Shown: piece by piece, positions 12,755 to 15,700 of the stretch | How positions within the stretch are numbered: position 1 is the stretch's first letter | Layout of the letters: each line of letters begins with the position of its first letter | IMG/VR virus record: IMGVR_UViG_648276653_000019 | From: a virus | Taxonomy: Duplodnaviria; Heunggongvirae; Uroviricota; Caudoviricetes | DNA: 45,892 bases | Strand: one strand, 5' to 3' | Made by a program: the position numbers

Positions 12755-15700
12755 TTAAATCTATCACCGCAAAGGATAAATATCTAACACCGTGCGTGTT
12801 GACTATTTTACCTCTAGCGGTGATAATGGTTGCATGTACTAAGGAGGTTGTATGGAACAACGCATAACCCTGAAAGATTATGCAATGCGCTTTGGGCAAA
12901 CCAAGACAGCTAAAGATCTCGGCGTATATCAAAGCGCGATCAGCAAGGCCATTCATGAAGGCCGAAAGATTTTTTTAACTATAAACGCTGATGGAAGCGT
13001 TTATGCGGAAGAGGTAAAGCCCTTCCCGAGTAACAAAAAAACAACAGCATAAATAACCCCGCTCTTACACATTCCAGCCCTGAAAAAGGGCATCAAATTA
13101 AACCACACCTATGGTGTATGCATTTATTTGCATACATTCAATCAATTGTTATCTAAGGAAATACTTACATATGGTTCGTGCAAACAAACGCAACGAGGCT
13201 CTACGAATCGAGAGTGCGTTGCTTAACAAAATCGCAATGCTTGGAACTGAGAAGACAGCGGAAGCTGTGGGAGTTGATAAGTCGCAGATCAGCAGGTGGA
13301 AGAGAGACTGGATTCCAAAGTTCTCAATGCTGCTTGCTGTTCTTGAATGGGGGGTCGTTGACGACGACATGGCTCGATTGGCACGACAAGTTGCTTCGAT
13401 TCTCACCAATAAAAAACGCCCGGCGGCAACCGAGCGTTCTGATCAAATACAAATGGAATTTTAACAACATCCAACGAGGTAATTATATGCGAAACAAAGG
13501 CTTTAATCCACCTGATACACACAAAGAAGCTAAGCGTTTGCGCTTCCTTCGTTCCATTGATGAAAGAACTCAAATCTCTTTTGTGAAAGTTGCCAGAACT
13601 GAGCTTCTGAAGGCTGAGGCGAGGGCGTTGCTCCCGTCTCTACCAAAAGAGGAGGGATATACGTTCATTCCAAACGCATTTCTGGAAAAGCTTCTCAAAG
13701 AAGACATATCCGTAAGTCAGTTTAACGATGTTCTTAAGGTCTTTCGTCAAGGCAGGTAGTTATGAGCAATACAGCAAAAATCTACGATTTCAGCGCCGCA
13801 CACGAGCGCAGGAGCAACAGGATGGAGAACCAGAAAACTGGTTACATTCCGTTGTACCGGAGCATTCTGAAACAGTCATGGGCGAAAGATGTTTATCTTC
13901 GCACCCTGTGGGAAAACCTTCTCCTGAATGCCGCCAGAAAGCCATACAAAGCGAATTTCAAAGGTCATGAATGGCATCTGCAACCCGGTCAACTGGTTGT
14001 GACAGCAGCTGATTTAGGTCTTCAGTTATGCGACAGGCATGGCAAGCCAGCAAGCCGTGATCAGGTTGAGCGGATGCTTCAGGTTTTTGTGAAAGAGGGG
14101 ATGATCACCATTGATGGAGAGAAGCAAAAAGGTCGTGTGATTACCATCACAAATTACCATGAATATGCTCAAAAAATGGACGATTCACCCGCACATGAAG
14201 CCGCACAAACAACCGCACATGAAGCCGCACATGACGAAGCCAGCAATGGCGCGGCTTTCAGAGTGCATGCCGCACATGAAAGCGCACATGAAGCCGCACA
14301 AACAACCGCACATCATGAACAAGAAGGTATTAACAAGAATATAAATAATACCCCCCTACCCCCCAATGGGGGAGGCGATGGGCAGGTTAAACCTGAACGT
14401 CGCAAGGCAGAACGAATCGACTACGAATCCTTCCTGAACGCCTACAACACCGAAGTCGGTGACAGACTGCCACACGCTGTTGCGGTCAACGAGAAACGCA
14501 AACGCCGCCTGAAGAAAATCATCCCGCAACTGAAAACGCCAAACGTGGACGGTTTCAGAGCGTATGTCAGGGCGTTTGTACATCAGGCCAAGCCGTTTTA
14601 CTTCGGAGACAACGACACTGGCTGGACGGCCGATTTTGATTACCTGCTGAGGGAAGATTCGTTAACGGGAGTTCGGGAAGGGAAGTTTGCAGACAGGGGG
14701 ATTGCATGAAACAGGATATCGAAGCGAGCGTTATCGGTGGCCTGCTGATTGGTGGATTAACACCAACCGCCAGCGACGTTCTGGCAACGCTGGAGCCGGA
14801 AGCGTTTTCAATTCCGCTCTACCGGAAAGCCTTCGAGGTTATCCGCAAGCAGGCGCGAAACAGAAACCTAATCGACGCGCTGATGGTTGCCGAGGCGTGC
14901 GGAGAGGAGCATTTCACGTCAATCCTGATGACCAGCAAAAACTGCCCGAGCGCCGCAAACCTGAAGGGATATGCCGGAATGGTCGCGGATAACTATCACC
15001 GCCGTCTGGTGCTGGAAATCATGGATGAAATGCGTGAACCAATTCAGAGCGGAACCATCGATACATCGAGTCAGGCGATGGACGAGCTTGTAAAGCGTCT
15101 TTCAGCCATCAGAAAGCCCCGTGACGAGGTAAAACCTGTACGGTTAGGGGAAATCATTACTGACTACACTGACACGCTTGACAGGCGTCTGAGGAACGGA
15201 GAAGAGTCCGATACCCTGAAGACCGGAATCGAAGAACTTGATGCCATCACCGGAGGGATGAACGCGGAAGACCTGGTGATAATCGCTGCTCGTCCTGGTA
15301 TGGGGAAAACCGAACTGGCGCTGAAGATTGCCGAAGGTGTTGCAAGCCGCGTTATTCCTGGTTCTGACGTCCGGCGCGGGGTATTGATTTTCTCAATGGA
15401 AATGAGCGCATTGCAGATTGCAGAGCGAAGTATTGCCAACGCCGGGAGGATGTCGGTTAGCGTGCTGCGAAATCCTGCATCGATGGATGACGAAGGCTGG
15501 GCGCGCGTTGCTAACGGCATGAGTCAGCTTGCAGATTTGGATGTATGGGTAGTCGATGCCTCGCGGTTATCGGTCGAAGAAATACGCTCAATCGCAGAAC
15601 GGCACAAACAGGAAAATCCAAACCTGTCACTCATCATGGCGGATTATCTTGGCCTGATTGAGAAGCCGAAAGCAGACCGCAACGACCTCGCAATTGCTCA

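Follow-up and report, generated by a model that had tools for sequence, protein, structure and literature searches.

A probable iteron-type replication origin inside the gene of an O-like phage initiator

The replication origin of phage lambda lies inside gene O and consists of four iterons and an AT-rich tract; the N-terminal domain of O binds the iterons, and the C-terminal domain recruits P-DnaB. The lambda iterons are about 18-19 bp long, have internal dyad symmetry and are bound by O dimers. The iteron plasmids (pPS10 RepA, R6K pi, RK2 TrfA, F RepE) employ winged-helix Rep monomers and direct repeats beside an AT-rich DUE. Their iterons are about 17-22 bp long with a spacing of about 22 bp, and are located outside the rep gene, usually together with DnaA boxes. 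The genes of lambda O, P22 gp18 and phage L gp18 contain iterons of their own, and P22 and L encode DnaB-type helicases (PMC8022706). In gene 18 of phage L, six imprecise 11-bp direct repeats, TGTCCAACGGA, were proposed as the origin from sequence alone (PMC8022706). Ogura et al. (2015) found that two Stx2a phage subtypes, epsilon and zeta, have wholly different 5' halves of the O homologue; the origin was not analysed in that study (PMC4645166).

Here we describe the corresponding region of the viral record IMGVR_UViG_648276653_000019 (Caudoviricetes), the analysed stretch of 45,892 nucleotides being referred to as the window. We consider it very probable that the segment 14189-14350 is the phage's theta-type replication origin, placed inside the gene of its own initiator and acting by the steps proposed below. 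The principle, an iteron origin inside the initiator gene, has already been described for lambda, P22 and phage L, i.e. a known lambdoid rule is confirmed and left unchanged. The iteron type itself appears to be undescribed: in the searchable literature we found no ori plasmid, footprint or marker-frequency data for it, and a search with the literal repeat sequence gave unrelated primer matches only.

The replication module and its repeat array

The early-right operon is headed by a pR-type promoter (12799-12827, + strand; TTGACT-17-GATAAT, found by consensus scan) that lies between the lambda-type ORFs cI (12038-12751, - strand) and cro (12852-13052, + strand). The cro, cII and O-like genes are on the same strand downstream of it. 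Transcription from pR would thus cross the putative origin and, by analogy with lambda, may have a role in its activation.

The O-like replication initiator gene (13762-14709, + strand) contains the candidate origin and encodes 315 aa. Its product matches Pfam Phage_rep_O (PF04492) at aa 20-132 (E 3.6e-15; 56.7 bits vs. a cutoff of 28.7) and PHROG 345, 'replication initiation O-like' (E 1.5e-99). Genes about 98% identical to it, annotated as replication protein O, are found in CUS-3, Kapi1, JEP4, TL-2011a and many Stx2a phages. The N-terminal winged-helix domain (aa 31-137; 13852-14172, + strand) is the predicted reader of the iterons. The C-terminal domain (14335-14709, + strand) is of the P22 gp18 / HK97 gp54 type and is the predicted helicase-recruiting module; it is 58% identical to the C-half of P22 gp18 over 126 aa. 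The DNA of this domain is 94-97% identical in HK544, ST104, BTP1, Stx phage 1717 and others, and the gene of a 458-aa helicase always comes next. In the window this is a DnaB-type replicative helicase (14706-16082, + strand; 458 aa; Pfam DnaB_C, E 8.5e-78; DnaB N-terminal domain, E 3.9e-13), the orthologue of P22 gp12, to which it is 90% identical along all 458 aa.

The repeat array (14189-14317) comprises eight 12-nt units, every one on the + strand, in two blocks of four. Block 1 (14189-14236) consists of CCGCACATGAAG (unit 1, start 14189), CCGCACAAACAA (unit 2, 14201), CCGCACATGAAG (unit 3, 14213) and CCGCACATGACG (unit 4, 14225), the core of the four being CCGCACA[T/A] (cf. the profile of 190 units from 30 loci). 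An inter-block spacer of 33 nt (14237-14269, + strand; AAGCCAGCAATGGCGCGGCTTTCAGAGTGCATG), which encodes EASNGAAFRVH, separates it from block 2 (14270-14317), i.e. CCGCACATGAAA (unit 5, 14270), GCGCACATGAAG (unit 6, 14282), CCGCACAAACAA (unit 7, 14294) and CCGCACATCATG (unit 8, 14306), the last of which adjoins the AT-rich tract. The repeat unit core of this locus, CCGCACAT, is asymmetric and 8 nt long, and zero copies of it are found on the complementary strand of the array. The phasing is exactly 12 nt inside each block, and the block starts are 81 nt apart. With respect to CCGCACATGAAG, two units are exact, three have one mismatch and one has two mismatches; the CCGCACAAACAA variant occurs twice.

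The number of CCGCACATGAAG matches with up to two mismatches in the whole window (8 vs. 4.6 expected) is not significant alone, and therefore a cluster statistic was used, since it is the clustering that counts. Eight [CG]CGCACA cores fall inside 130 nt, whereas 500 simulations of the window with a first-order Markov model gave clusters of 2 at most, which excludes a chance origin of the array. The array begins 45% into the initiator gene, at the boundary of the N- and C-domains, and is translated in frame as PAHEAAQTTAHEAAHDE...AAHESAHEAAQTTAHHE, a 4-residue repeat between two folded domains. Two terminator-like matches on the minus strand (14299-14282 and 14190-14178) were not treated as terminators, their 5-bp stems being formed by the repeat itself. 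An extra CCGCACA at 13796, considered as an autoregulatory site, is probably a coincidence; S.Inf 5-2 has the same N-terminal peptide with different iterons. An Rfam scan of 11500-16500 gave no match.

The array runs directly into an AT-rich tract of 33 nt (14318-14350, + strand; AACAAGAAGGTATTAACAAGAATATAAATAATA; 82% A+T), a predicted DNA-unwinding element. It is the least stable 31-nt duplex of the early-right operon (12850-16100), with a dG of -30.9 vs. a window mean of -42.7 (sd 3.4). Next to it is a short G/C inverted repeat, C6-TA-C6-AAT-G5 (14351-14372, + strand), that encodes PLPPNGG and begins the shared C-terminal half of the gene. The same element follows the AT tract in the ST104/HK97-type, P22/BTP1, S.Inf 5-2 and ENT1 genes, and is missing from genes with a lambda-type C-domain.

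An earlier note on this DNA had placed the repeats inside the O-like gene, read them as an in-frame linker followed by an AT-rich tract, and seen a DnaB-type helicase in the place of lambda P, all of which is borne out by the above data. It had also counted at least four copies at 12/24-bp phasing. The repeats and the 12-nt phasing are confirmed, but there is no separate 24-bp phasing: the eight units are arranged as 4+4 around the 33-nt spacer.

We infer the following course of events. Derepression would allow pR transcription and the synthesis of the O-like protein, whose N-terminal winged-helix domain would bind the eight 12-bp iterons (core [C/G]CGCACAT) in one orientation, 4+4 across 33 bp. 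The resulting iteron nucleoprotein complex would destabilise the adjoining 33-bp AT-rich tract, and the P22 gp18-type C-domain would load the phage's own DnaB-type helicase on the opened DNA. With its own helicase, the phage would require neither a lambda-P-type loader nor host DnaB. Replication that does not depend on host DnaB is reported for lambda(18,12)P22 hybrids (Table 5 of PMC3349717).

It is conceivable, though we think it unlikely, that the repeats bind the initiator mainly for the purpose of regulation (autoregulation or titration, copy-number control or 'handcuffing', the exclusion of related phages, or a roadblock to transcription) and that replication starts elsewhere. Plasmid iteron arrays have comparable secondary regulatory roles, and the two-block layout with its conserved spacer is unnecessary for the simplest origin model. 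Moreover, plasmid-borne lambda iterons inhibit rep-lambda phages (PMC3349717). On the other hand, the array abuts the least stable AT tract of the operon, in which 66 alleles have zero segregating sites, and the position and order of the elements match those of the mapped lambda and the annotated P22 origins. Repeat and duplex-stability scans of the replication module revealed no second repeat-plus-AT candidate. Regulatory roles would most likely be additional to an origin function at 14189-14350, not substitutes for it.

Conservation of the repeats and co-variation with the DNA-binding domain

Relatives were collected in several ways. A scan of genome contigs with a single N-domain sequence found no relatives, probably because the collection holds one genome per species; an N-domain alignment of five lineages as the query returned 36 loci. 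The comparison set consisted of 30 species-level loci with 190 repeat units. Two scans of viral contigs returned only relatives about 99% identical, which were used for population diversity and not for divergence.

It is conspicuous that the layout is the same in 30 of 30 loci: n+n units (3+3 or 4+4), a 33-nt spacer and an AT tract with the consensus AACAAGAAGGTAATAACAA (mean 83% AT). The spacer is constant in length, and its first 20 nt or so are kept even where the lineages have other unit cores. The core bases, third-codon positions included, are nearly invariant across the 30 loci, while the remainder of the unit and the encoded peptide vary freely. Third-codon positions carry 2.0, 1.13 and 1.42 bits of information in the core vs. 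0.10 bits outside it (190 units, 30 loci). The base preceding CGC is C in 190 of the 190 units, though the amino acid of its codon varies. GCC or GCT is never used for the core alanine, the codon being purine-ending in 174 of 174 cases, which is a descriptive figure, as the units share descent; unit counts in general are not independent observations, since common descent links the units of one locus as well as those of different loci. The same tendency is seen in pairwise comparisons. Where residues are identical to those of the Klebsiella homologue, the codons are also identical at 30 of 31 positions in the repeat region vs. 56 of 96 in the N-domain (Fisher p 1.5e-5); for the Yersinia homologue the values are 20 of 23 and 51 of 85 (Fisher p 0.012).

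Within the population the picture is similar. Core positions 5-7 and the AT tract as a whole have zero diversity in the 66 alleles; for unit positions 9-12 and the spacer the value is 0.052-0.065. Some alleles have one core mutated and 7 of 8 intact, which indicates that not every unit is indispensable. Judged from these patterns of sequence variation, the cores and the AT tract are under purifying selection at the DNA level.

The structure of the N-domain was modelled with AlphaFold2 from a 29-sequence alignment, with moderate confidence (mean pLDDT 71; 72-90 over aa 31-137); from a single sequence, the full-length protein gave no usable model (pLDDT 39). In the N-domain model, H2 is formed by aa 82-88, the recognition helix H3 by aa 99-111 and the wing by aa 115-129. 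Every Foldseek match of this model is a winged-helix DNA-binding domain, but the matches are weak (E about 0.01-0.08) and generic; the best match of a PDB sequence search was non-significant (E 0.47), and none was to a solved Rep protein. In other words, there is no close solved homologue from which DNA contacts could be borrowed.

The units are all CCGCACA in 21 loci and all CCGCGCA in 9. Only two columns of the N-domain split these groups perfectly, aa 82 (A/P vs. S) and aa 100 (D vs. H); in the model, H2 starts with the former, and the latter is second in H3. In the change from CCGCACA to CCGCGCA all units of a locus change together, always with A82S and D100H, and CCGCGCA loci are found at 3-4 separate places in the N-domain tree. 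The base-5 change is silent in the protein (GCA to GCG, both Ala). Lineages with N-domains 43-52% identical have other cores and other residues at aa 99-101. We note that the association of aa 82 and aa 100 with the core could come from recombination that moved the helix-turn-helix segment and the repeats as one block, and not from independent co-evolution.

It is very improbable that the repeat is a feature of the protein only, i.e. a low-complexity, His/Ala-rich flexible linker that was expanded by slippage and has no cis-acting role as DNA. Linkers often tolerate in-frame 4-residue repeats of the kind seen here between folded domains, and single-sequence structure prediction gives no confident fold at the repeat. 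However, the synonymous sites of the repeats are more conserved than those of the folded N-domain, and the amino acids less. The composition of the peptide is wholly changed between lineages (AHEA/AQTT, PDEPCDKPSD, VEGSDEPPVE), whereas the 12-nt periodicity, the two n+n blocks and the 33-nt spacer persist; finally, the base-5 switch, which is Ala-silent in all units, tracks two residues of the DNA-binding domain.

Within the origin interpretation, a more specific model may be offered tentatively, and as a whole we regard it as possible rather than likely. Unlike the lambda O-some, the complex would consist of winged-helix protomers placed head-to-tail on asymmetric sites that recur every 12 bp in two blocks of equal size; the 33-bp spacer would either accommodate a third component, be it a host factor or some conserved portion of the initiator, or have to bend or loop between the blocks; and the A82/D100-CCGCACA and S82/H100-CCGCGCA pairs would constitute a natural recognition code that sets origin specificity, and hence replicon compatibility among co-resident prophages.

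Exchange of the putative origin cassette among relatives

Across phages, the N-domain, the repeats and the AT tract form one co-inherited cassette. The co-inheritance of N-domain and repeats is in part expected from linkage, as both lie within 400 bp. In the window, CUS-3 and S.Inf 5-2 the cassette is joined to the P22-type C-domain and the DnaB-type helicase; in phages of Klebsiella and Yersinia its partners are a C-domain of the lambda type, 51% identical to lambda O, and a homologue of lambda P (63%); and in ENT1 they are a third C-domain and another DnaB. Conversely, the same C-domain and helicase are found with another N-half and other repeats in the same place, namely ATTAGC-N7-GCTAAT in ST104/HK97 and GGTAAA...TTTACC in P22/BTP1. 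The type of the C-domain always matches that of the downstream gene, P22-type with the 458-aa DnaB-type helicase and lambda-type with the lambda P homologue.

That 14189-14350 acts chiefly as a recombination or mosaic boundary, conserved in many lambdoid phages and aiding module exchange among them, with the repeats as a by-product, is hardly credible: BLAST breakpoints between phage groups do fall at gene nt 574-584 (window 14335-14345), the hybrid-phage crossover points of the lambda record lie just past the AT tract and, in the O homologue, the 5' half differs completely between two Stx2a subtypes (PMC4645166), but the junction coincides with the AT tract's 3' end and the C6/G5 element and not with the repeats, which differ between cassettes and so cannot supply homology for exchange, and a junction role is compatible with an origin role, both of which coexist in lambda. 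The shared AT/C6-G5 stretch could additionally serve recombination.

The module is present in CUS-3, Kapi1, JEP4, TL-2011a and about 50 records of Stx2a-converting phages; prophages of at least 30 species of Enterobacterales have related cassettes. The database records of CUS-3, ST16-OXA48phi5.2 and vB_YenM_29.18 do not mark an origin. Matches to Salmonella plasmids of about 36.7 kb were discarded as proof of autonomous replication, since they look like circularised phage genomes.

Mapping of the putative origin would provide exact coordinates for the annotation of a common replication module, and 13762-16082 would be the minimal replicon for lambda-dv-like vectors that use a phage-encoded helicase. 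The natural series of initiators and iterons, with two candidate specificity residues, lends itself to the study of the evolution of origin specificity and of the ways in which cross-talk between co-resident prophages is avoided. Replication proteins define the subtypes of Stx2a phages, and these subtypes correlate with toxin output (PMC4645166); to know the cis-acting origin in each of them would also help to test whether replication efficiency is behind those differences.

Comparison with described replicons

The likeness to ori-lambda is one of plan. In both cases the origin is in mid-gene, at the boundary of the N- and C-domains of the initiator (the repeats start at 45% of the gene here, 39% in lambda and 43% in P22), and multiple same-sense sites are followed by an AT tract of about 33-40 bp (82% AT here, 78% in lambda, directly after the repeats) and a short dyad element. 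In lambda the latter is the dyad-symmetric TCAGAG...CTCTGA right of the AT tract, the position held here by C6-TA-C6-AAT-G5. Both lie downstream of pR, cro and cII and have a module boundary just after the AT tract. Both initiators have a Phage_rep_O N-domain and similar N-termini, MSNTAKIYDF here and MTNTAKILNF in lambda O.

The sites themselves are different. Lambda has four iterons of 18 bp with dyad symmetry; here, eight asymmetric units of 12 nt are repeated directly, in two blocks around a 33-nt spacer, and thus the binding geometry is not simply transferable from lambda O dimers. The core, CCGCACAT, is unrelated to ATCCCTCAAAACGAGGGA of lambda, and the N-domain is barely alignable with that of lambda O (E 0.004 over 65 aa). 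In place of the loader P there is a P22 gp18-type C-domain with a phage DnaB-type helicase. The absence of lambda-type dyad iterons is a difference in site architecture, the overall plan being the same. This agrees with the earlier note, which had proposed an ori-lambda-like plan with an unrelated iteron sequence. Its further suggestion, that specificity differs from lambda owing to the combination of an O-like protein with DnaB, holds as regards the difference but not the cause, which would lie in the divergent N-terminal DNA-binding domain: in Klebsiella and Yersinia phages the same cassette is accompanied by lambda P and by an O C-domain of the lambda type, so that specificity would not be set by the O-like-plus-DnaB arrangement.

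The P22 replicon, and that of BTP1, which is of the same type, shares the gp12-type helicase, the gp18-type C-half, the C-rich/G-rich element and the gene order, and the P22 RefSeq record has a rep_origin annotated within gene 18 at the equivalent position. In contrast, the N-half of the P22 protein has no significant BLASTP similarity to ours, the P22 repeats are unrelated GGTAAA..TTTACC-type dyads, and P22 has a lambda/P22-type AT tract, ACACAAAAGACA, where the window has the AACAAGAAGG type. In other words, a P22-type helicase-recruitment half is combined with a different origin-recognition half. HK97 gp54/gp55, ST104 18/12, HK544 and Stx phage 1717 (the 'Eru2' replication unit of Stx phages) have a C-domain and a 458-aa helicase nearly identical to those of the window; the early region of the window is otherwise HK97-like. 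The HK97/ST104 group differs in having another N-half (a 273-aa protein) and two ATTAGC-N7-GCTAAT repeats, the swap point being the AT tract.

Phage L, known to us from the published description, resembles our locus in that an O-like gene, accompanied by that of a DnaB-type helicase, contains short direct repeats whose length is about one helical turn, but both the repeat sequence and the protein differ. With the iteron plasmids the locus shares direct repeats of the same orientation, a winged-helix initiator (predicted here) and an adjoining AT-rich element; unlike theirs, its units are 12 bp long and lie inside coding sequence, and its initiator has neither a sequence relation nor a close structural relation to Rep. 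As in those plasmids, the asymmetric units would suit head-to-tail binding of monomers better than they would suit lambda-style dimers on palindromes.

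The repeat array and its surroundings

The O-like initiator ORF (13762-14709, + strand, 315 aa; Pfam Phage_rep_O at aa 20-132, E 3.6e-15) holds eight 12-nt units, all on the + strand. Block 1 (14189-14236, +) consists of CCGCACATGAAG, CCGCACAAACAA, CCGCACATGAAG and CCGCACATGACG, block 2 (14270-14317, +) of CCGCACATGAAA, GCGCACATGAAG, CCGCACAAACAA and CCGCACATCATG; a 33-nt spacer (14237-14269) lies between them and a 33-nt AT tract (14318-14350, 82% A+T) follows. Repeat finders returned the same layout. The [CG]CGCACA cores occur 8 times in 130 nt, whereas 500 Markov simulations of the window gave no cluster above 2. 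No 31-nt duplex stretch of the early-right operon and both replication genes is less stable than the AT tract, which ranks fifth among non-overlapping stretches of the whole 45.9-kb window. Unit layout, clustering and duplex stability thus confirm the repeats and AT-rich tract that the earlier note had placed inside the O-like gene. The four or more copies that it listed are real, but the array is larger and more regular, i.e. eight units in two blocks.

A ninth CCGCACA core at 13796-13802 (initiator codons 12-14, about 390 nt upstream of the array) is probably coincidental, since Salmonella phage S.Inf 5-2 has the same SAAH peptide but different iterons. Other tandem repeats of the window are found at 8452-8535 (GCTTCT, about 14 times, 60% matches) and 21747-21783 (12-13-nt unit, 2.9 times). 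Most database proteins of the initiator family (P0001-P0073) are labelled partial (146-240 aa), and contigs or gene calls often seem to stop within the repeats or shortly beyond them, which may be an effect of the repeats on short-read assembly.

The initiator ORF overlaps by 4 nt a gene for a DnaB-type helicase (14706-16082, +, 458 aa), and a pR-like promoter (12799-12827) and lambda-type cI, cro and cII lie upstream. The helicase shares 90% identity with P22 gp12, and the last 126 aa of the initiator share 58% with the C-half of P22 gp18. The initiator N-half gave no alignment with P22 gp18 and a weak one with lambda O (E 0.004 over about 65 aa, the N-terminus among them). Initiator genes about 98% identical are present in CUS-3, Kapi1, JEP4, TL-2011a and about 50 Stx2a-converting phages, annotated solely as replication protein O; the CUS-3 record carries no origin feature. 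Four Salmonella records filed as plasmids (CP148757, CP148760, CP148765, CP148768; about 36.7 kb) contain this initiator gene and a replicative helicase, and are probably circularised P22-like phage genomes, not true plasmids. Taken as a whole, the window is a mosaic lambdoid phage, HK97-like in its early region and resembling Wanchaivirus PDP110P2 and Klebsiella phage Mulock in its late region (25001-45892 is 91-97% identical to PDP110P2 and to Klebsiella phages including Mulock and ST16-OXA48phi5.2).

Between cII and the O-like gene an 89-aa ORF (13490-13759, +) matches PHROG 2519 (unknown function, E 1.8e-56); in the CUS-3 record nothing is annotated in the equivalent gap. A strong minus-strand terminator-like hairpin at the cII 3' end (13413-13440, -; 12 pairs, then a T run) presumably matches the lambda oop terminator, and Rfam gave no match in this region. 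Initiator residues 1-10 (13762-13791, MSNTAKIYDF) are closely like the lambda O N-terminus MTNTAKILNF, the peptide by which ClpX recognises lambda O; by analogy the window initiator may be an unstable ClpXP substrate. The S.Inf 5-2 N-terminus (MSNTAKVYDF) is very similar, although its iterons differ.

Constraint on the DNA of the repeat region

Three independent data sets agree in indicating that selection in the repeat region acts on the DNA. Codon identity was compared pairwise at residues identical between homologues (Fisher test). With the Klebsiella homologue, identical codons make up 30/31 in the repeat region vs 56/96 in the N-domain, the N-terminal winged-helix domain (p 1.5e-5); the Yersinia values are 20/23 and 51/85 (p 0.012). 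Among 66 distinct alleles (IMG/VR plus CUS-3, N-domains about 99% identical), nucleotide diversity is 0 at core positions 5-7 and at all 33 nt of the AT tract (no segregating site), 0.009 over the whole 8-nt core, 0.025 at N-domain third-codon positions, 0.052 at unit positions 9-12 and 0.065 in the spacer.

At the species level, an N-domain alignment of 5 lineages, used as the query against one genome per species, gave 36 loci. In a set of 30, which includes the window and Klebsiella and Yersinia phages (N-domains 66-80% identical to that of the window), every locus has n+n units (3+3 or 4+4) with a spacer of exactly 33 nt, and the last unit abuts an AT tract (AACAAGAAGGTAATAACAA, mean 83% AT). 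The profile of the 190 units reads C155/G32, C190, G189, C175, A134/G56, C190, A184, T168, and the last four positions are low in information. Within the core, third-codon positions carry 2.0, 1.13 and 1.42 bits, as compared to 0.10 bits for the one outside it. The base preceding CGC is invariably C while the amino acid of its codon varies, and the core Ala codon is exclusively GCA or GCG; at conserved four-fold sites of the N-domain the commonest codon averages just 0.57. Lineages with other cores keep the same periodic layout with very different peptides (PDEPCDKPSD, VEGSDEPPVE). A repeat maintained purely as a protein linker cannot explain the data, as it is contradicted by this constancy of codons and bases and by the turnover of peptides on a constant layout.

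The first 20 nt or so of the spacer (AAGCCAGTAATGGCGCGGCT, encoding SNGAA) are kept even where the iteron cores differ (window, L002, L003, L088, L089 and L092-L124 of the loci compared), and its codon choice varies less than the N-domain baseline (AGT 25/29, GCG 24/26, GGC 18/18). Possible reasons are a site for a host factor, a geometric requirement or conservation of the peptide.

Co-variation and exchange of the proposed recognition module

Where N-domains are 43-52% identical to that of the window, the scaffold is kept (two blocks, a 33-nt spacer encoding SNGAA(L/F), a AACAAGAA-type AT tract) and the cores differ: CCGATGA/GCGATAA in S.Inf 5-2 and Pantoea, GGTAACA in Pantoea wallisii and Pseudescherichia, CGATACA in Sodalis, and GTCGAAG/GACGAGC in Enterobacter phage ENT1. 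Within the CCGCRCA group, position 5 is uniform in each locus, being A in 21 loci (exception: 1/6 G in one Yersinia phage) and G in 9 (7/8 in locus L112). Only two N-domain columns separate A-type and G-type loci perfectly, aa 82 (A/P vs S) and aa 100 (D vs H). When these were masked, G-type loci fell at three or four separate places of the neighbour-joining tree; G-type L105 is 87% identical to an A-type Yersinia phage, and the nearest relatives of G-type L112 are A-type L109 and L110.

An AlphaFold2 model (29-sequence alignment, pLDDT 72-90 over aa 31-137) predicts a winged helix (H1 44-58, strand 77-80, H2 82-88, H3 99-111, wing hairpin 115-129), with residue 82 first in H2 and residue 100 second in the recognition helix H3. 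Foldseek returned generic winged-helix DNA-binding proteins only, with no close solved relative. Residues 99-101 also differ in the other-core lineages (SRD, SRH, SPQ, AKQ, KQS, AKA). Block recombination could account for part of the association, because the helix-turn-helix segment lies just 130-190 nt from the repeats. Sequences and model together are what would be expected of an N-domain that reads the core. We consider this candidate two-residue recognition switch and the length-invariant 33-bp spacer the most interesting leads.

BLAST matches to the initiator gene break at gene nt 574-584 (window 14335-14345), i.e. where the AT tract ends on its 3' side. In phages of Klebsiella (ST16-OXA48phi5.2, Mulock) and Yersinia (vB_YenM_29.18) the shared part is the 5' one alone (75-80% identity). 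It comprises the N-domain, CCGCACA repeats (4+4 and 3+3), the same spacer and an AT tract resembling that of the window; their C-half is 51% identical to lambda O aa 156-297, and the next gene product is 63% identical to lambda P. HK544, ST104, Stx phage 1717 (HK97 gp54 type) and BTP1/P22 share the 3' part alone (94-97% identity) together with the 458-aa helicase, and have other N-halves with different repeats in the equivalent position: two copies of ATTAGC-N7-GCTAAT in ST104, the GGTAAA...TTTACC type in P22 and BTP1. The P22 RefSeq record annotates this region as rep_origin, and the lambda record places hybrid-phage crossover points just after the lambda AT tract. These natural swaps point to two evolutionary units, N-domain, repeats and AT tract for origin recognition, and C-domain with the downstream gene for helicase recruitment, which is the classic domain logic of lambda O.

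Several observations concern the mosaic itself. The Klebsiella phages with the matching late region also have a related N-domain/iteron cassette, combined with P and with a C-domain of the lambda O type. The AT tract is immediately followed by CCCCCCTACCCCCCAATGGGGG (14351-14372, a C6-TA-C6-AAT-G5 element encoding PLPPNGG), which is common to all versions paired with a DnaB-type helicase (L004-L007, L088, L089, L091), among them ENT1 with its different C-domain, and absent from lambda-type C-domain versions; it marks the mosaic junction. Locus L127 (Symbiopectobacterium MAG, 1801-2500), with a frameshifted N-domain and one block of three units left, appears to be a replicon copy in decay.

Proposed origin and known replicons

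The array and AT tract very probably constitute a functional origin. The earlier note's reading of an origin mirroring ori-lambda is supported by what was observed, namely anatomy, selection signatures, modularity and co-variation; the likeness lies in the plan, but the units are direct, not palindromic. By analogy with lambda and P22, from which the steps of binding, melting and recruitment and the start site itself are extrapolated, transcription from pR would yield the initiator, whose winged-helix N-domain would occupy the eight direct 12-bp sites. As the units are asymmetric and share one orientation, protomers would more probably bind head-to-tail than as lambda-style dimers on palindromes. 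The complex would then stress and open the adjacent AT tract, and the P22-type C-domain would deliver the DnaB-type helicase that the phage itself encodes, so that the replicon would not depend on a lambda-P-type loader. The different origin specificity claimed earlier is supported as well, but it would reside in the N-domain cassette and not in the use of a DnaB-type helicase.

The searchable literature, which leaves most subscription journals outside its coverage, yielded no description of CCGCACA-type iterons, the two-block/33-nt-spacer layout or the aa82/aa100 association. The general rule of iterons within the initiator gene is already published: lambda O, P22 gp18 and L gp18 each contain their own (in phage L, six 11-bp repeats), and the helicases of P22 and L are of the DnaB type (PMC8022706). 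Ori-lambda has four 18-bp iterons and a 38-bp AT tract within O (PMC3349717). The HK97-type replication unit of Stx phages is known as Eru2 (PMC8044961), and Ogura et al. described two minor Stx2a-phage subtypes whose O homologues have different 5' halves (PMC4645166). In comparison to a lambda-type origin, every architectural feature is present except the iteron form, i.e. 12-nt asymmetric units instead of 18-bp dyad sites. With the P22 replicon the window shares the helicase and C-domain half, but not the half for origin recognition.
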